From: an uncultured Spirochaetota bacterium
GTDB taxonomy: Bacteria > Spirochaetota > Spirochaetia > SZUA-6 > Fen-1364
Direction of reading: 5' to 3'
NCBI GenBank assembly: GCA_963734545.1
Contig: CAVTHO010000009.1
Span: 32,001 to 96,000 of the forward strand
DNA: 64,000 nucleotides
Below, in pieces: positions 7,862 through 58,934 of this stretch. The stretch's first letter is position 1; every line of letters begins with the position of its first letter. A model generated the notes under the pieces. The model did not search any database. It was not told the origin of the DNA and was given only the letters and a program-made list of their open reading frames with translations. The position numbers and the translations under genes are program-made.

Positions 7862-7992
7862 GCAAATGCCACGGTGTACCGTGGCCGCAAATGCCACGGT
7901 GTACCGTGGCCGCAAAATGCCACGGTGTACCGTGGCCGCAAAATGCCACGGTGTACCGTGGCCGCAAAATGCCACGGTGTACCGTGGCCGCA
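7862..7992. repeat. Tandem array of 5 identical 18-bp hairpins GCCACGG-TGTA-CCGTGGC, period 26 (first 25); TACN-hairpin family
   Basis: Hairpins start at 7868, 7893, 7919, 7945, 7971, linked by CGCAAA(A)T; no unique spacers. Confidence 0.95.
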
Positions 7993-33757: not shown

Positions 33758-34640
33758 AAGCTTTCGCACGATCGAGTCCCTCCCGGCCGCATCCTGGCCT
33801 CCGCCGAGACGAAGAAGAAAGAGAAACTCCCTGTTGCCTTTTCTGCCGCGAAGGGGGGACTCCATCGCGTCCTCCACTCCCACACCTTCGTCCGACAGCC
33901 CTGCAATGAGATCCGTGAGAATATCGCGAAGCGCGCCCTTTCCCTGCACGACCCCCCTGAAGTCCCGGGGCGGGCGCCTGTATTCGAACTGCGGCTTGAC
34001 CAGGAAAATTCCGCGTCTCGCCGCGGTGAGCCCCAATATATGCGCTGCTGCCTGGCGGATCGAGCGGAAAGACAGATCTGCCGCCGCGCTGTCGGGAACA
34101 GGATCAAGGTCAAGAGCCCGCACCGTCATGACGTTCGTGGATTCCATCACGCGCACTCTCAGGTCGGCGCGCAGCCGCCAGTCGAGCTGGTTTTCTCCGA
34201 CATCGATTGCGTACACCAGGGATGCGCCGCGGCGCAGCAGGCAATCGGTGAATCCGCCTGTGGAGCTGCCCGGCATCGATCCAGGTCGTTCCCGCGCAGG
34301 CGATTGCCCACAGGTCGAGGCCCGCCGCGAGCTTCTCCCCGCCGCGGGACACGTAGGGCGGCTTCTCGCGGACGCTGATCGCCGCGTCGGCGTGGACAAG
34401 AGTTCCCGGTTTCACGACCTTCTCTCCCCCCACCAGGACTTCCCCGCGGAGGATCTCCGCGAAAAGCTCCTTCTCGTCACGCGACGGGTAGATGGTCTTG
34501 AGCAGGTCGATGAGGCGGACCCTTCGGCGCGGTCCTCCGTGCATTTCTTCTCGGCGCGGTCCTCCGTGCATTTCTTCTCGGCGCGGTACCCCGCGCATTT
34601 CTTCTCGGCGCGGTACGGCGTGCTCGTTGCGCGGTCTCAC
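33746..34640 (-). CDS. tlyA: TlyA family rRNA (cytidine-2'-O)-methyltransferase; +1 frameshift at 34267-34273; repeat-derived N-terminus
   Basis: S4-like domain, YVSRGGEKL, D.GSSTGGFTD, DLSF, LVKPQFE, GNREF. Confidence 0.9.
34524..34634. repeat. TACN-hairpin family: 27-bp tandem units (3 complete plus the start of an expanded unit)
   Basis: TCGGCGCGGT at 34524, 34551, 34578, 34605. Confidence 0.93.
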
Positions 34641-49865: not shown

Positions 49866-50156
49866 CTACTTCGCTTTCTCGACTATCTCGACAAGCCGCC
49901 AGCGCTTGTCCTTGCTCAGCGGCCGGGATTCCACCACGCGCACCGTGTCCCCGATCCCGCACTCGTTCTTCTCGTCATGCGCCTTGATCTTCTTTGTCCT
50001 CGTCAGGTATTTCTTGTACAGCCGATGGAGCTTGCGTTGATGGATCTCGACGACGATCGTCTTCTGCATCTTGTTGCTCACGACGCGGCCCTGGAGGACC
50101 TTCTGGACCGGCACGGTATTCCGTGCATTATTTGTCTTCTTTGTCACTTCTTCCAC
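49866..50156 (-). CDS. rpsQ: 30S ribosomal protein S17
   Basis: [25 protein letters not shown]. Confidence 0.96.
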
Positions 50157-50167
50157 GTGCCGCTCTC

Positions 50168-50368
50168 CTAGCGCTTTCTGATTCCGAGGTCGAACTCGCG
50201 GATGATCGATGACACCCGGGCGAGCTTGCGCCGCGCGGTCCGCTTGGAAAGCGGGTTATCCACGTGGCCGATGATCATGTTTGCGCAGACGTCATTGTAC
50301 TGCTTCTTGAGCTCCTCCCGCTTGGCGAGCAGCTCCGGATAACTCAGCTCTTTGAACGAGTCCTTCAT
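50168..50368 (-). CDS. rpmC: 50S ribosomal protein L29
   Basis: Position plus ELS..EL...NP...RRKLAR. Confidence 0.9.
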
Positions 50369-50372
50369 ATGC

Positions 50373-50789
50373 CTACTCCACGCTCTCCCGAACCAGGAAC
50401 TTGGTCTTGATGGGCAGCTTGCTGCCGGCACGCTTCATTGCCTCTTCCGCCATCTTGCGGTCGACGCCTCCCAGCTCGAACATCACGGTCCCCGGCTTCA
50501 CCGGCGCGACCCAGTACTCCGGTGCTCCCTTGCCTTTTCCCATGCGGGTCTCGGCAGGCTTCTTCGTGAACGGCTTGTCGGGGAATATCCGTATCCATAC
50601 CTTCCCGCCGCGCTTGACGTGACGGGTAATGGCGATACGGCACGCCTCGATCTGGCGGTTGGTGATCCACTCTCTCTCAAGGGCCACCAGGCCGAAGTCG
50701 CCGAAGGATATCTCCGTGCAGCGGGTGGCCCTGCCCTTCATGACCCCGCGCATCTGCTTCCTGTATTTCGTTCTCTTGGGGCTCAGCAT
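50373..50789 (-). CDS. rplP: 50S ribosomal protein L16
   Basis: [20 protein letters not shown]. Confidence 0.97.
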
Positions 50790-50795
50790 GATTGA

Positions 50796-51560
50796 CTACT
50801 CCTGCCCTCTCTCGCGGCCTCGGAGGTCCCGGCCGTCGCGGCTGTCCCTGCCGTCCCGGTCTTCCCGGGCGTCGCGGCCTTCACGGCCACGGCGCACGAG
50901 GAGGCCGGCATCGTCTTTCTTCGCCGGCCCGTACACTTCTCCGTTGAAAATCCAGACCTTGATGCCGACGCACCCGAACGTGGTGATTGCCGTGGCCGTG
51001 CCATAGTCGATGTCCGCCCGGAAGGTATGAAGGGGAATTCTCCCCTCCTTGAACTCCTCCCGGCGGGCCATTTCCGCTCCGGAGAGCCGGCCGGAAATCT
51101 TCACCTTGATTCCCTGCACGCCCGTCTTCATGGCGTTCAGGATGGCCATCTTGCAGGCCCTTCTATAGGAGGCGCGCGCCTTGATCTGGCGGGAGATGTT
51201 CTCCGCCACAAGCTTTGCGTTCGTCTCGGGACGCTTGATCTCCTTGATGCGGAGCTGAATCTTCTTGCCGATGCTTTTCTGCAGCTTGCCGCCCAGCTTC
51301 TCGATGTTGGCGCCCTTGGCGCCGATAAGGACCCCGGGCCGCCCGGTGTGGATGATCACGGTCACCCTCTGCGGGTGGCGGATGATCTCCACTTCCGCAA
51401 TGTCCGCTCCCTTTGTTTCCTCCGCGTCCAGGATGATTTTTCGGAGACGCAGATCCTCATGCAGAGTTGCGGCATAGAGCTTGGGATCCACGAACCAGCG
51501 CGACGACCAGGTCTTGTTGATCCCCAGCCGCAGCCCTATCGGGTTAACCTTCTGACCCAT
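50796..51560 (-). CDS. rpsC: 30S ribosomal protein S3
   Basis: [26 protein letters not shown]. Confidence 0.97.
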
Positions 51561-51999
51561 TGGCTACCTCTTTTGCACCGATCTCGTCGACGACCACGGA
51601 TATGTGGCAGGATCTCTTGATGAGCCTGTCCGCGCGGCCGCGGCCGCGGGCCCACATCCTCTTCATCGAGGGCCCCACGTCGACCAGGAGCTCCTTCACG
51701 TACAGCATCTGCTCGTCGAGGTTCTTGTTCTTCGCCAGCGCGTTCGCGGCGGCCGACTGGATGAGCTTCGACAGGAGCCGGGCACCCTTGTGGGGCAACA
51801 CGCCCAGCAACGCCATGGCCTCCACGTACGGCTTGCGGCGGACATTATCGGCAATGCGCCTCACCTTTGTCGCTGACACCCTCTGAAAGGGTACGCTGGC
51901 GCGGTACCCCGTGGTGATCTTGCGGGGCGGCCGCGTCTTCCTGACGGGCTTGCTGCCGGGCTCGCGCGCCGCTTTGAGCTTCTTCGGTGCATCGCTCAT
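51544..51999 (-). CDS. rplV: 50S ribosomal protein L22 with basic N-terminal extension
   Basis: [22 protein letters not shown]. Confidence 0.95.
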
Positions 52000-52277
52000 T
52001 TCTTTACTACCTTCTTGTCAGAGCCCGAATGCCCCCGAAAGATCCGCGTAGGGGCGAACTCCCCGAGCTTGTGGCCGACGAGGTTTTCCGTGACGTACAC
52101 GGGAACCCAGGTCTTGCCGTTGTACACGGAGATCGTGTAGCCCACCATCTCGGGGATGATCGTGGAGGTTCGTGAGTATGTCTTCACCATCCGCTTCTCG
52201 CCGCTCTTGTTCATGTCGACGACCTGCTTGTACAGGCTTTTCGCGATGAACGGTCCCTTCTTGATCGATCGTGACAC
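51996..52277 (-). CDS. rpsS: 30S ribosomal protein S19
   Basis: [19 protein letters not shown]. Confidence 0.97.
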
Positions 52278-52289
52278 GCTCCGGCCCCC

Positions 52290-53117
52290 CTATTTCCTTC
52301 GATCCTTCACGATGAAGCGGCTCGTGGTGTTGCGCTTCTTGCGGGTCTTGTACCCCTTGGTCGGCTGACCCCAGGGACTGACGGGATGCCGTCCGCCCTT
52401 GGTCTTTCCCTCTCCACCGCCGTGCGGGTGGTCGACAGGGTTCATCGCCGTGCCGCGCACCTTCGGCCGCTTGCCCAGCCACCGGCTGCGCCCCGCCTTG
52501 CCGAGGGACACGTTCATATGGTCCTTGTTTCCCAGCTCGCCGATTGTGGCATAGCAGCGCTCGTTCACCATCCGCATCTCGCCCGAAGGAAGCCGCACGG
52601 TCACGTACAGCCCCTCTTTGGCCACCACGGTGGCGCTGGTCCCGGCGGAGCGGACCATCTGCCCTCCCCTGCCGAGATTGAGCTCTATGTTGTGAATCTG
52701 CATCCCCAGGGGAACCTTGCCCAGGGGAAGAGCGTTACCGGGTTCGAACCCGACGTCAGGTCCGCTCACGACGGTCTTCCCCACGGTGAGGCCCTCGGGC
52801 GCAAGGATGTAGCGCTTCTCCCCGTCCTTGTACACGATCAGGGCGATGAATGAGCTGCGGTTCGGGTCGTATTCGATGGCGCTCACCCTGCCAGGAATGC
52901 CGATCTTGTCACGGCGGAAATCGATCTGTCGGTACGCCTTCTTGTGGCCGCCGCCCTTGCGTCGGACGCTGATCCTGCCGCCCGCTCCACGACCCGCGTG
53001 CTTCGACTTGCCCTTGGTCAGTGCCTTTTCCGGAGACTTCTTGGTGATCTCTTCGAAGGTGAGACCCGTCTTGAACCGCAGTCCGGGGGTTAAAGGCCGG
53101 TATTTCTTGATTGCCAT
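52290..53117 (-). CDS. rplB: 50S ribosomal protein L2
   Basis: [21 protein letters not shown]. Confidence 0.98.
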
Positions 53118-53137
53118 GAATGCTTCCTGCCCTTTCC

Positions 53138-53506
53138 TTAGACGCCCTCGAAGATGGCGATCTTTTCCTCAGGGGCGATCGTGATGATCGCCTTCTTCCA
53201 GGACGCGGTATAGCCGAGCCTGTAGCGCACCCTCTTGGGCTTTGTCGCCGTCTTCAGCACGTTACACTTGAGGGGATGCACGTTGTAGAGCTTGCGCACA
53301 GCGTCCATGATCTGGTACTTGTTCGCCCGGCTGTCCACCTTGAACACGTACTTGTGGCTTTCCCGCATCACGTTCGTCTTCTCGGTCACCACCGGCTCGA
53401 TGACGATTCTCTCGATCCGGTGCGGTACGCCGTGCGTTTCCGGCTGGCGCGGTACTCCGCGCGTTTCTGGCCGGCGCGGTACTCCGCGCATTTCTTCTGG
53501 CGTCAT
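53138..53506 (-). CDS. rplW: 50S ribosomal protein L23 with repeat-derived N-terminal extension
   Basis: [20 protein letters not shown]; ATG overlaps the rplD stop (ATGA). Confidence 0.95.
53417..53500. repeat. TACN-hairpin family: three 27-bp units inside the 5' end of rplW
   Basis: CGGTAC at 53423, 53450, 53477; the last unit GCGCGG-TACT-CCGCGC-ATTTCTTCT matches the tlyA units. Confidence 0.93.
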
Positions 53507-54276
53507 TTGTCCGCCCCCTTTGCCTTGGCGGCTTTCCGCGCCCGGGGAGCCGGTGCGGCGGCGGCTTTCGCCTTGGGCCTGGTCCTGGTCTCGGCGGCGC
53601 CGCGCGCGGTCGCGCGCTCAGCGGAACCGTGCGGCACTGCCTCGGCGGAGCCCTCTGCCCCATAGAAATTGTTGAGCTTGGTGGCCGCGGTTTCCAGCAG
53701 AAGCAGCTTCTGACAATAGAAGAGCGCGTGCGCCGTCAGCCTGTTGAAGCTGAGAAAGTCCAGCCACGGGACGTTTCGACCGGCTCTCCGGGTCATCGCA
53801 TCGTCGTCCTTGAGAATGACCACGGTGCGCTCCTGCGCGGCGAGATTCTTCAATAAAAGTACCAGGTCCTTGGTCTTTCCGCTCTCCACGGTGAAATCCG
53901 TGACCACGCGCAGCTTGTCCTCTTTCGCCTTCAGGGAGAGAATGGAGAGGAGGGCCAGCCGCTTCACCTTGCGGGGAAGCTTGTAACTGTAGTCGCGCGG
54001 CCGGGGCCCGAAAATCTTTCCGCCGCCCACCCAGACGGGTGAGGTTCTCTGGCCCGCGCGCGCGCGGCCCGTGCCCTTCTGTTTCCACGGCTTCTTGTTG
54101 CTGCCATGCACCTCGCCGCGATCCTTGATCTTCGCGGTGCCGAGACGGCGGTTGGCCAGCTCGTTCCTGATGGCGTGATAGATGGAGCCCTCGCTCACAT
54201 CGCGGCCGAACACCACGTCGGAGAGCTCGATCTCGCGCAGCGCCTTGCCGTCCAGTCCGTAGACCTGTGTCTTCAT
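53503..54276 (-). CDS. rplD: 50S ribosomal protein L4 with Ala/Lys/Arg-rich C-terminal tail
   Basis: [25 protein letters not shown]. Confidence 0.96.
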
Positions 54277-54286
54277 CGTTTTCGCC

Positions 54287-54904
54287 CTACTTCTTTCCGG
54301 CCTTGAGCACGACGACAAAGCCGCCGCGTCTGCCGGGCACGGCGCCGTTGATCAGCAGCAGGCCCTTTTCCTTGTCCACTTTGAAGAGTCGCAGGTTCTG
54401 CACGGTGAGGCGCGCGTTGCCCATGCGCCCCGGCATCTTCGAGCCCTTGACGATCTTGCGGAACGCGCCGGTGCCGACCGAGCCCATTTCGCGGTGAAAC
54501 TTCGAGCCGTGGGCCCCGGGGCCGCCCGCGAACTTGTGCCGCCGGACAACTCCCTGGAAACCCTTGCCCTTGGTGGTGCCGCGGACGTCGACGTACCGCA
54601 CGCCCTCGAAGATTTCCACGCCGACCTTGTCGCCGACCTTGCACTCCTTCTCGAAGTCCTTGAACTCGAGGAGGAACCGCGTCGGGTCCGTGCCCTCGGG
54701 GAACTGCCCCGCGTAGGGTTTGCGGACGCGCGTCTTCTTCAACGGGTCTGCGCCGAGAACCATGGCGCTGTACCCGTTCTTTTCCGCCGTGCGTTCCCGC
54801 ACGACCACGTTCGGCTCCACCTGTATCACGCTGAGCGGGATTCTCATCCCCTCCTCGTTGAACAGCTGGGTCATGCCGATCTTTTTGCCGATTAGCGCAA
54901 GCAT
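54287..54904 (-). CDS. rplC: 50S ribosomal protein L3
   Basis: [21 protein letters not shown]. Confidence 0.97.
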
Positions 54905-54918
54905 TCCTGCAGCCTCAC

Positions 54919-54995
54919 TGCGACGCGGTACGCCGCGTCATTCGTTGCGACGCGGTACGCCGCGTCATTCGTTGCGACGCGATACGCCGCGTCGC
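54919..54995. repeat. TACN-hairpin family: three 27-bp units GACGCGG-TACG-CCGCGTC-ATTC between rpsJ and rplC
   Basis: Units start at 54919, 54946, 54973. Confidence 0.93.
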
Positions 54996-55304
54996 TCATT
55001 GCTTGATTTCGACGTCCACGCCGGCGGGCAGCTCCAGACGCATGAGGGCGTCCATGACCGCGGGGGTGGGCTCGAGGATGTCGATCAGCCTCTTGTGGGT
55101 CCGCATCTCGAATTGCTCGCGCGATTTCTTGTGCACGTGCGGCGAGCGCAGGACCGTGAACTTGTTGATCCTCATGGGAAGCGGGATGGGGCCCGAGACC
55201 CGAGATCCCGCCTTCAGCACCGTCTGCACGATGGACTTCGCGCTCTGATCGATGAGCTCGATGTCGAAACCCCGCAGGCGCACTCGAATCCTTTCCCTGG
55301 CCAT
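54996..55304 (-). CDS. rpsJ: 30S ribosomal protein S10
   Basis: [29 protein letters not shown]. Confidence 0.97.
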
Positions 55305-55317
55305 TCTCTTACTCCGT

Positions 55318-55367
55318 CCGGTCACGGTACCCCGTGACATTCCCGGTCACGGTACCCCGTGACGTTC
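55318..55367. repeat. TACN-hairpin family: two 25-bp units GTCACGG-TACC-CCGTGAC-ATTC between tuf and rpsJ
   Basis: Units start at 55318 and 55343. Confidence 0.9.
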
Positions 55368-55423
55368 CTTCGCGCCGTGCCGGCAGCACGCCGGGCGTTA
55401 CATCCGCGTCTTCGCGCGGCGCC

Positions 55424-56617
55424 CTACTCAATGATGTCCGTTACCTGTCCTGCCCCGACCGTCTTGCCGCCTTCCCGGATGGCGAACTGAAGCCCCTTGT
55501 CCATGGCGATGGGGTAGATCAGCTCGACAGCGAGATCGGTGATATGGTCGCCGGGCATGACCATCTGCTTGCCTTCGGGCAGCGTGACGGACGCCGTGAC
55601 GTCCGTGGTGCGGAAGTAGAACTGGGGCCGGTATCCCGTAAAGAACGGAGAGTGCCGCCCGCCCTCTTCCTTGGTCAGCGCCACGACGGTGCACTTGAAC
55701 TTCTTGTGCGGCGTGATCGAGCCCGGCTTGGCAAGGACCTGTCCGCGCTCGACGTCGTCTTTTTCTATGCCGCGCAGAAGGGTGCCGATATTGTCGCCCG
55801 CCTGCCCCTCGTCCAGAAGCTTGTTGAACATTTCGACACCGGTCACGACCGTCTTGCGCGTGTCCTTGATGCCGACGATTTCGCATTCGTCTCCGACATG
55901 CACGACACCCGTTGCCACGCGTCCGGTGACCACGGTTCCGCGTCCGGAAATGGAGAACACGTCTTCGATGGGCATCAGGTACGGCTTGTCAACCGGTCGC
56001 GGCGGAATGGGGAAATACTCGTCCATCGTGGTGAGAAGCTCCTCGATGCACTTGGTGTTCTCCGCCACCTCGGGATGCTCCATTGCCTTGAGCGCCGAGC
56101 CCTTGATGATGGGGATCTTGTCGCCGGGGAAGTTGTAGAATTTCAGGACGTCCCGAATCTCCACCTCGACCAGCTCGATGAGCTCCTTGTCGTCCACCAT
56201 GTCGATCTTGTTCAGGAATACGACGATGGCGGGCACACCGACCTGCCGGGCCAGGAGAATGTGCTCCCGGGTCTGCGGCATCACGGAATCAGGCGCGGAC
56301 ACGACGAGCACGGCACCGTCCATCTGGGCGGCTCCCGTGATCATGTTCTTTATATAGTCCGCATGCCCCGGGCAGTCGATGTGGGCATAGTGGCGCTTTT
56401 CCGACTGGTACTCCACATGCCGGGTGTTGATGGTGATCCCCCTCGCCTTCTCTTCGGGGGCATTATCGATGTCCTCATACTTCATCAGCTTGTCGCCGTA
56501 CTTCTTCGCGCAGTACATGGTGATCGCAGCCGTGAGCGTGGTCTTGCCGTGGTCGATGTGACCGATGGTGCCCACATTGATATGAGGCTTCGACCGGACA
56601 AATTTCTCCTTCGCCAT
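55424..56617 (-). CDS. tuf: Elongation factor Tu
   Basis: [26 protein letters not shown]. Confidence 0.98.
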
Positions 56618-56658
56618 AAAACTCCTCCTTGCAGTTTCCTGACGCGCTCAAATTCCCT

Positions 56659-56815
56659 GCGCGGTACCCCGCGCCTTTTTTTCCTGTGCGCGGTACCTTG
56701 CACGGTAACCCGTGCAGTTTCGCGCTTTTTTCCCCACCGCAGTACGGCGTACCCGCTACACGGGTACGGCCTCCGGGCCGAGCGCGTGCTCGCGCACTCC
56801 CGTCCTCCGCGCTTC
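56659..56815. repeat. TACN-hairpin family: simple, singly nested and doubly nested units between fusA and tuf
   Basis: GCGCGG-TACC-CCGCGC; GCGCGG-TACC[TGCACGG-TAAC-CCGTGCA]..CGCGC; TAC[hp]..[ACGGG-TAC[hp]GA[hp]ACT-CCCGT]..CCGCGC. Confidence 0.85.
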
Positions 56816-56846
56816 TCTGTTCCGCCCCGCTCGCTCAAATCCCCGG

Positions 56847-58934
56847 CTATTTTTTCGAGCCGCGGGTCTTGGTCACAAGCTCTTCCTGGATCGATCGAGG
56901 GGTGTCCTGGTAATGGGAGAATTGCATGGTGTGTGACGCGCGCCCCTTGGTCATGGAACGCAGCGTCGTCACGTACCCGAACATGGAACGCAAGGGTACG
57001 AGGGCTTTCACCACCTTACTCCCAGGCCGATCTTCGATTCCCTCTACGTGGCCCATTCGCGCGCCGAAGTCCGAGATGACATCCCCGAGGTGCTCCTCGG
57101 GAGTCGCGCACTCCACGGCCATGATCGGTTCAAGGATAGTCGGTTTGGCTTTTGCACAGCCCGACTTGTATGCCATCGATGCCGCCACTTTGAAGGCCAT
57201 TTCGCTGGAGTCCACGTCATGGTAGGACCCGTCCAGCAGCGATGCCCGGAAGTCCACCATCGGGTAGCCTCCCAGCACCCCGTTTTCCATGGCTTCCTTG
57301 ATGCCCTTCTCCACCGCGGGAACATATTCCCGCGGCACGCGGCCGCCGATGACCTTGTTCTCGAAAATGAACCCCGTTCCGGCAGGGAGAGGCTCGAAGC
57401 TCATGATCACGTGCCCATAGGCCCCGTGGCCGCCGGTCTGCTTCACGAACTTGCCCTCCGCCTCGGCGCTGGCCCGGATGGTTTCGCGGTAGGCAACCTC
57501 GGGTGTTCCGACGTTCGCCCCCACGTTGAACTCGCGGAACATCCGTTCCACGAGGACCTCCAGGTGCAGCTCGCCCATGCCCCAGATGATCGTCTGGCCC
57601 GTTTCCTTGTCGAAACGCACCTTGAACGTCGGGTCCTCCTCCGAGAGCTTGTGCAGGGCCGAGGAGAGCTTCTCCTCGTCTTCCCTGGTCTTCGGCTCGA
57701 TGGAGACGGAAACAACCGGGTCGGGAAAGACCATGGATTCCAGGATGACCTGCCGCTCTTCGTCGCACAGCGTGTCACCCGTGGTGGTCTTTTTCAGACC
57801 CACGGCTGCCGCGATGTCACCCGGATAAACGGCCTTGATCTCTTCCCGCTCGTTCGCGTGCATCCTCAGTATCCGTGTCACCCGCTCCCGCCTGTCAGCG
57901 GTCGAGTTGTAGATGTACGACCCCGCCGTCAGCGTTCCCGAATACACACGGATGAAAGTCAGCTTCCCCACAAAGGGGTCCGTCATGATCTTGAATGCAA
58001 GCGCCGCGAAAGGCTCGTCATCCCTGGGAAAGCGCTGGATATAGTCCCCGCTGCTGGGGACCGTTCCCATGGTCGGCGGAACGTCCGCCGGCGAGGGAAG
58101 GTAGTCCACGACTGCGTCAAGAAGAGGCTGGATGCCCTTGTTCTTGAATGCGCTTCCGCACACGACAGGGAATATCCTGCCGCTCACCGTGGCTGTCCGC
58201 AGGGCCGTTCTGATGGCATCTTCGCCGATTTCTTTGCCGTCGACGTAGTCCGCCATCATTGCGTCGTCCGTCTCTGCCAGCTTCTCCACCATCGTAGCCC
58301 GCGCCGCTTGGGCGGCTTTCATGACCTTGGCGGGGATCTCCACCTCACGGAATTGCGCCCCGAGAACGTCTTCGTCCCAGATCAATCCGCGCATCCGGAC
58401 CAGGTCCACCAGCCCGGCAAAATCCCCCTCGATTCCGATGGGAACCTGTATGGCGACCGCGTTTGCCCCGAGCTTGGCGTGCATTTCCTCCACGACTTCC
58501 TCGAAGCGCGCTCCGGTCCTGTCCATCTTGTTGATGAACGCCACACGGGGGACGTTGTATCGGTTGGCCTGCTTCCAGACCGTCTCGCTCTGAGGCTCGA
58601 CGCCTTCGACGGCCGAGAAAACCCCGATTGCTCCGTCCAAAACTCTCAAAGAACGTTCCACTTCGACAGTAAAGTCGACGTGTCCCGGCGTGTCGATGAT
58701 GTTGATCTGCACGCCGCGCCATTCACAGAAGGTCGCGGCCGCCGTGATGGTGATGCCGCGCTCCTTCTCCAGATCCATCCAGTCCATCTTGGCTTCGCCA
58801 TCATGGACTTCACCGATCTTGTGTGTCCTGCCGGTATAGTACAAAACCCGTTCTGTCGTCGTCGTCTTACCGGCGTCAATATGGGCCATTATCCCGATAT
58901 TGCGTGTCGACGACAGGGGATACCGCGATTCCAT
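56847..58934 (-). CDS. fusA: Elongation factor G
   Basis: [45 protein letters not shown]. Confidence 0.98.

Follow-up and report, generated by a model that had tools for sequence, protein, structure and literature searches.

The Rickettsia palindromic elements (RPEs), reportedly described by Ogata et al. in 2000, and the REP (repetitive extragenic palindromic) sequences are the described systems closest to the one treated here, and in-frame insertions of both are already known. In the part of PMC10969869 used here, RPEs appear as palindromic selfish repeats of about 100-150 bp, which lie in frame in unrelated functional genes and add to their products a peptide read in one conserved frame, and according to the main text of PMC3733652, the N-terminal decorations made by RPE-1 are expressed in vivo. 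The same text describes intragenic REPs with GTAG or CGTC tags, among which dimers or groups encoding 20-30 residues make up more than half of the inserts; many are N-terminal, and those in tails, linkers and loops were judged neutral, while many REPs at annotated N-termini were argued to be extragenic. REPs of the CGTC type are described there as lacking a dedicated transposase. We report here on rplW, the gene for ribosomal protein uL23, in a window of 64,000 nucleotides (nt) from an uncultured Spirochaetota bacterium (assembly GCA_963734545.1, contig CAVTHO010000009.1, positions 32,001 to 96,000), in which an array of REP-like hairpins lies in frame directly behind codon 2. Few genes are as constrained as those of the universal ribosomal proteins, and it is the target gene that is unusual in this case. 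No report of a REP, an RPE or a MITE (miniature inverted-repeat transposable element) inserted in a ribosomal protein gene was found in the main texts searched. The term "ribosomal protein" is absent from the main text of PMC3733652. Our interpretation, which we regard as probable, is that a REP-like repeat inserted in rplW is most likely translated as a disordered tail and is tolerated as selfish DNA.

The closest published precedent for the rplW insert is the intragenic REP, not the RPE. Like intragenic REPs in the main text of PMC3733652, the repeats of the host genome are short GC-rich palindromes of high copy number that lie mostly between genes, a minority being located entirely within open reading frames (ORFs), and like the CGTC REPs they seemingly have no dedicated transposase. 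They differ in that the consensus of 300 units, CCGCGG-TAC[TC]-CCGCGG-ATTT, has no GTAG at either end, and in that an untagged hairpin with a 6-bp stem (CCGCGG) and a 4-nt loop stands in place of the 8-9 bp stem, 4-5 nt loop and CGTC tag of the CGTC REPs; a CGTC end, GACGCGG...CCGCGTC, was seen only in some host copies, for example at 54919-54993. The host units form head-to-tail direct arrays, whereas intragenic REPs occur mainly as head-to-head dimers, and the target here is a ribosomal protein gene with an orthologous start codon upstream of the insert. The REPs and bacterial interspersed mosaic elements of Escherichia coli resemble the host family as stable GC-rich stem-loops with hundreds of copies and clustered arrays between operon genes, but in the host no REP-associated tyrosine transposase (RAYT) was detected and the arrays are direct, not alternating. 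An analogy to RPEs had been drawn in the first-pass annotation of the window. It holds for the mode of action, further in-frame copies having been found in a Mur ligase, in a histidine kinase and in rplV of a sister species (G017); the intragenic REPs are the closer precedent. In contrast to RPEs as presented in PMC10969869, the host unit is only 24-27 bp long (8-9 residues), and several reading frames are used. RPE hosts are obligate intracellular alpha-proteobacteria, whereas the present spirochete is free-living, has a GC-rich genome (62%) and comes from wetland metagenomes, and its units have expanded in tandem.

The rplW gene was located at 53138-53506 on the minus strand, at the canonical place of the S10 operon between rplD and rplB in the ORF order. 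It encodes 122 residues including the insert, and Pfam assigned residues 34-117 (53156-53407) to Ribosomal_L23 (PF00276) with 92.6 bits against a cut-off of 30.8; this conserved core was also the folded part of the AlphaFold2 model described below. The best match among solved uL23 structures was 8fmw_AV (E = 7.1e-19). The start codon (53504-53506), which is the same as in relatives, overlaps the stop codon of the upstream rplD (uL4; 53503-54318, minus strand) as ATGA, and a Shine-Dalgarno-like AAGGGGG was read 7 nt 5' of it (53514-53520). Between codons 2 and 3 lies an insert of 84 bp (53417-53500), consisting of three 27-bp hairpin units and 3 bp, so that the protein begins with MT followed by 28 repeat-encoded residues (residues 3-30) and the conserved core; this N-terminal sequence agrees with that given in the first-pass annotation. 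Both the coupling to rplD and the three-unit make-up of the array had been noted in the first-pass annotation, and both were borne out, the latter by Tandem Repeats Finder (53417-53495; period 27, 2.9 copies, 86% matches, score 116), by hairpin matches and by alignment with relatives. In every unit, a GC stem of 6 bp encloses a 4-nt loop. In gene order, unit 1 (53474-53489) and unit 2 (53447-53462) are perfect hairpins, each reading GCGCGG-TACT-CCGCGC on the plus strand, and unit 3 (53420-53435) is a degenerate one, GTGCGG-TACG-CCGTGC on the plus strand, with three mismatches; two of its stem pairs are G.T wobbles on that strand and A.C mismatches in the mRNA sense. The three units are not identical, the longest run common to them being 17 bases. 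When the hairpin 16-mer was searched in the window with up to three mismatches, 18 matches were obtained against 2.49 expected, and none of 100 shuffled sequences reached 18.

The insert was absent from all relatives in which the region could be read. The protein search covered 41 genomes, the host (G000) and 40 relatives, 37 of which gave a match; 30 loci were retrieved, 29 of them from relatives. Reading the frame upstream of the core in these 29 loci, as had been proposed as a check of the extension, revealed no extra sequence: MT stood directly before the core in 18 and a methionine within 0-3 codons of it in nine, and two (L019 and L024) were unclear. A DNA alignment with nine relatives placed exactly 84 extra bases, in the host only, between ATGAC(G) and ATCGAG; all nine had ATGAC at the start-codon column, and their Shine-Dalgarno column read AAGGGGG, AAGGGAG or ACGGAGG. 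The two closest relatives, G014 and G002 (loci L002 and L003), have uL23 cores 96.7-97.8% identical to that of the host and no insert. Of the species of the genus other than the host, 17 had an rplW match, and the insert was found in none of them. Among 177 database homologues at E<=0.001, the best 120 were examined and lacked the insert, being 78-98 residues long with at most 79% query coverage. In the 34 solved uL23 sequences (87-107 residues), residue 29-34 of the query aligned to residue 3-17, and with 33 residues preceding the Pfam match the host protein exceeds the usual length of bacterial uL23. The insert is, as judged by these comparisons, species-specific.

The host rplW might also be a decaying copy, the functional one being located in the unassembled 11% of the genome. 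The assembly is indeed only 89% complete, but this explanation is barely credible: the gene occupies the canonical place between rplD and rplB, its frame is intact, its core is nearly identical to those of L002 and L003 with substitutions of the coding type, and it was the sole uL23 match in the 5.14 Mb assembly.

No stop codon interrupts the array, whose frame continues into the core. The only canonical in-frame start codons at or before I31 are M1, which is orthologous and preceded by the Shine-Dalgarno sequence, and M6, which is created by AAATG of the repeat itself; the first in-frame ATG, GTG or TTG after M6 is a GTG pair within EPVV of the core, in accordance with the earlier statement that no start lies between array and core. 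No GGAG- or AGGA-like motif was found in the 24 nt before I31. In the codons for IERIVIEP, which follow the array, only two synonymous substitutions and a conservative one separate the host from its two closest relatives. As these codons are under coding constraint, translation must start at or before I31, and a ribosome departing from the intact old start would read through the array in any case, because it is in frame and stop-free. The array is thus most likely translated into a 28-residue N-terminal tail of uL23, and the earlier view that the repeat can hardly escape translation still stands. In the course of events that we propose, a REP-like hairpin repeat would have landed in rplW directly behind codon 2 by some form of transposition and grown by slippage from one to three units, while the old Shine-Dalgarno sequence and ATG stayed upstream, still coupled to the rplD stop. 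Initiation would take place at the old ATG or no later than the repeat-derived M6, and the ribosomes would go on through the array, the product being an otherwise normal uL23 with a Pro/Arg/Glu-rich, disordered N-terminal tail of 28 residues. Survival in an essential gene would be open only to in-frame, stop-free insertions in a permissive, solvent-exposed tail, where they may be nearly neutral.

AlphaFold2, run with a 25-sequence alignment, gave residues 1-32 no regular structure. The mean predicted local distance difference test (pLDDT) values of the 10-residue blocks were 57, 58 and 46 in this part and 72-89 (residues 31-90), 54 (91-100) and 82 (101-120) in the core, which looked normal; the overall mean was 71.9. 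The N-terminal tail is therefore predicted to be disordered. The N-terminus of uL23 is presumably solvent-exposed and near the glutamate on which trigger factor docks, which we take to be E42 here, the conserved Glu of a TEK motif. A likeness exists in the spinach chloroplast, where uL23c has a mainly disordered N-terminus next to the tunnel exit, its mature form comprising residues 77-198 and its model residues 105-193 (PMC5071890, in the part used here); the extra segment is of similar size. The chloroplast extension is old and lineage-wide, whereas that of the host is confined to one species and can be traced directly to a mobile repeat. A paper on the exit tunnel (PMC13338714) did not address the N-termini of uL23.

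Several points weigh against our interpretation, and they concern initiation, the setting of the tail and the assembly. The 151-nt region was computed to fold at -63.8 kcal/mol (z = -3.0), and with GC-rich hairpins from 16 nt behind the ATG onwards initiation could be impeded, an effect against which coupling to rplD termination should help. The array might be real but untranslated, a structured leader between rplD and rplW, with translation starting at an ATC codon (I31, I34 or I36) to yield uL23 of normal length. Besides the strong folding, such a leader would fit the occurrence of other family arrays in true operon spacers, between rpsJ and rplC and 5' of rpsJ, and the argument that many N-terminal REPs are extragenic (PMC3733652, main text). 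That argument, as presented there, needs shorter homologues pointing to a downstream start, whereas the start of the homologues in the present case is the upstream ATG. The orthologous Shine-Dalgarno sequence and ATG have both been preserved, a frame without stops leads from this ATG into the core, the motif expected before a start at I31 is missing, and the frame is kept in both alleles described below. ATC is a very weak bacterial start codon, and a normal-length uL23 made from it would be implausible for an abundant ribosomal protein. We consider an untranslated array unlikely. As for the setting of the tail, its exposure at the surface and its closeness to the trigger-factor glutamate are presumed.

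The points concerning the assembly would suit the view that the three-unit array is an artefact or a minor allele in a population whose dominant members have a normal rplW. This is a metagenome-type assembly of 10 contigs and 89% completeness, in which small errors are possible, and one neighbouring gene, FtsJ-like, looks frameshifted against its orthologues. None of the public contigs listed spans all three units; these contigs are short, several related organisms contributed to them, and copies of the repeat from other places accumulate on the array. A scan of the metagenome contigs of the Joint Genome Institute (JGI) with a pattern for the array-core junction gave no match, and a second scan with the start-array junction found no second rplW junction; its only match (L065) lay in an unrelated permease-like ORF reading GMTPEEARR and was dismissed as a chance match. 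In contrast, a public contig of run X1, 251 nt long and of depth 4.6, aligns to 53700-53495 with all but 11 of 206 bases matching, then skips 57 bp and resumes at 53437, the 206 and 45 aligned letters accounting for the whole contig. It reads through the rplD tail, ATG ACG CCA GAA, the last unit and the uL23 core, and thus places a family insertion at this site in sequencing reads. The contig probably represents a 27-bp, 9-codon allele in a diverged lineage; the frame is preserved with both the 84-bp and the 27-bp insert. The three units differ among themselves, with only 17 identical bases in a row, which does not agree with a plain collapse or duplication artefact; the insert keeps the frame exactly and has no stops, and it lies on a 352 kb contig with normal gene order in the S10 operon. 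An artefact or minor allele is therefore very unlikely in our estimation.

The hairpins of rplW belong to a dispersed family. The census, made with the pattern C[AG][CT]GG-N4-CC[AG][CT]G and T[AG][CT]N-type loops, counted approximately 325 units in approximately 225 loci of the host genome, in head-to-tail arrays of 1-5 units with a spacing of mostly 24-27 bp, the unit being a single hairpin with an 11-nt spacer. A strict pattern gave 167 matches against one for the reversed control, in support of the selfish-looking family that the first-pass annotation had proposed. The same pattern had 158 and 168 matches in the two closest species, 1-70 in the other 18 species of the genus and at most 6 outside it, so that the family appears largely restricted to the genus. 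A survey of open frames over the arrays was too noisy at 62% GC and was replaced by a crude caller based on codon usage, which took the longest start and predicted 4186 genes (80% coding). Outside these predicted coding sequences (CDSs) lay 81 of 140 stringently defined units, in a genome of which about 80% is coding, while the 101 of 225 loci counted as inside a CDS overstate the intragenic copies because of the longest-start calls. Within arrays, spacings divisible by three made up 8 of 9 deep inside predicted CDSs, 12 of 30 in the intergenic regions and 12 of 23 at the edges of genes, spacings of one array not being independent of each other. Orientation relative to transcription was near random (24 versus 23 units between co-directional genes).

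A candidate for the mobilization of the family was not evident. No RAYT was found, its absence being unproven in a genome 89% complete, and none of 13 same-genus genomes searched passed the RAYT cut-off. The sole Y1 transposase (PF01797) of the host, at C4:159630-159989 (L031), is of the IS200 type (NF033573, 145.6 bits); the RAYT model scored 35.3 bits on it, below the cut-off of 80, and neither family hairpins nor inverted repeats flank it. Rfam returned no family at E<=0.1 for 50000-58000, and no duplicated flank of the kind left by MITEs was visible at the rplW junction. The arrays also differ from CRISPR arrays, since the 11-nt stretches between the hairpins are themselves repeated and the units number only 1-5.

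Units of neighbouring 50-kb blocks tend to share orientation, with no clear relation of orientation to GC skew, which is weak, or to the gene-strand majority (57:24 versus 38:21). Among imperfect stems genome-wide, the TAC-loop strand has 39 G.T/T.G mismatches against 3 A.C/C.A, 36 of them being a T on the left arm. This bias could reflect a strand-specific constraint on single-stranded DNA or just the founders of subfamilies; with 36 mismatches of one type, no conclusion in favour of a constraint was drawn.

In-frame copies of the family were identified in other genes as well. A Mur ligase (C7:871249-872799, L033) has 10-11 extra residues (ERMRGVPRRDE), corresponding to one unit, between its middle and C-terminal domains, and a hybrid histidine kinase (C9:197076-199700, L032) has 33 extra residues inside HATPase_c, containing three 8-residue units TPNPRDTA. 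By Pfam and orthologue alignment, these residues are missing from all nine orthologues of the former and all three of the latter. In the sister species G017, codon 5 of rplV (uL22) is followed directly by two perfect 27-bp units, which encode GNARGTAPA twice; they lie in L004 (G017:C2:869185-872508), approximately 1416-1470 nt downstream from the motif of the uL23 core. This insertion is independent of that in rplW and concerns a second ribosomal protein of the tunnel exit. The family is thus read in different frames according to the gene, as RGVPR, NPRDTA or ARGTA. The motif E[EMT].[RH]G[VG]P[RH]R, which had been suggested as a signature for finding repeat-derived peptides, occurred in only 2 of the 4186 crudely predicted proteins and failed as such.

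The rplW array is one of five family loci in the tuf/S10 stretch (50100-56700), the others being located at 50112, 54919-54993, 55318-55368 and 56660. With five loci in 6.6 kb, the density exceeds the genome mean, one per 23 kb, by a factor of about 17. All five have one orientation, with the TAC-loop strand antisense to the mRNA. Tandem Repeats Finder described the array at 54919-54993, in the rpsJ-rplC spacer, as 27 bp x 2.8, and family hairpins occupy the same position in five other same-genus loci; the array at 55318-55368 (25 bp x 2) lies just 5' of rpsJ or overlaps its 5' end. The array most similar to that of rplW (34524-34614; 27 bp x 3.4) was found at the 5' end of an FtsJ-like methyltransferase gene, with a YmdB-like gene on its other side, and it is read in the same EEM(R/H)G.PRR frame. 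The array is fused in frame to the methyltransferase in the host and, at the same place, in G002, whereas 10 other orthologues start within a few bases of the upstream stop, with M(A/P)SR(R/K).

Some of these observations would also fit an exapted tail, with a function at the tunnel exit such as docking of trigger factor or the signal recognition particle (SRP), contact with rRNA or assembly, or hairpins that regulate the coupling of rplD and rplW. The insertion occurs in two diverged lineages, as the contig with the one-unit allele differs at 11 of 206 rplD-tail bases, family units stand in the N-terminal tail of another tunnel protein in a sister species, the tuf/S10 region is dense in copies, and the insertion stands 11 residues before the conserved TEK glutamate, whose role in trigger-factor docking is presumed as stated above. 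An exapted tail is nevertheless decidedly unlikely: the insert was missing from the 17 other species of the genus with an rplW match, its copy number varies (one versus three units), no structure was predicted for the tail, the reading in several frames speaks against a selected peptide, and the orientation of the family is near random. The insert is species-specific and modelled as disordered, and it looks tolerated and not recruited. Of the two fates named in the first-pass annotation, exapted or tolerated, the second is thus retained and the first is not.

The insert shows that selfish DNA can be absorbed in tails even of ribosomal protein genes, uL23 in the host and, in parallel, uL22 in the sister species, and it offers a natural test of how much N-terminal mass the platform at the tunnel exit bears. 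It widens the range of intragenic REP-like elements to a free-living spirochete lineage with direct tandem arrays, a spacing of 8-9 codons and no detectable RAYT. Genes of this kind are easily mis-annotated, through a shifted start or by being flagged as odd, and the copy number of the rplW array, one or three units, could be used as a strain marker. The functional weight of the insert, to judge from sequence, is probably modest. A bolder scheme, unlikely to hold, is that a translatable hairpin module repeatedly lands behind start codons of coupled operon genes, decorating uL23 in the host and uL22 in G017, and that the tails or the mRNA hairpins measurably affect co-translational factor binding or the coupling of rplD and rplW. 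It would imply species-specific ribosome surfaces beside the docking site of trigger factor and SRP, that is, a repeat-driven heterogeneity of ribosomes and not neutral baggage.

Further observations were made on neighbouring genes. A hairpin match in rplV of the host itself (51900-51913) was rejected as a chance match, for it lies in the TTGYR / KKGY segment of uL22 that is conserved in all relatives. The N-terminal tail of uL22 (51880-51999, compared over L002-L020) is hypervariable across the genus, owing to low-complexity expansions that reach tens of residues and to short duplications in tandem, as in L012, L014 and L019. The 3' end of rplD (53503-53680) encodes a long Ala/Lys/Arg-rich C-terminal tail of uL4, which is common only to the two closest species (L002, L003); uL4 of other species of the genus ends soon after ...FYG. 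The C-terminal tail of uS3, of the RDGRD type, is encoded by a 9-bp tandem repeat of seven copies (50826-50888). The FtsJ-like methyltransferase gene (PF01728; 33746-34700, minus strand), whose product we take to be of the TlyA type, is split into two overlapping frames after approximately residue 84 when compared with its orthologues, and it is either a pseudogene or affected by an assembly indel. The array at 7864-7992, on the 5' edge of a predicted gene of 441 codons, consists of five 26-bp units with 99% matches and represents a CACGG-TGTA-CCGTG subfamily.

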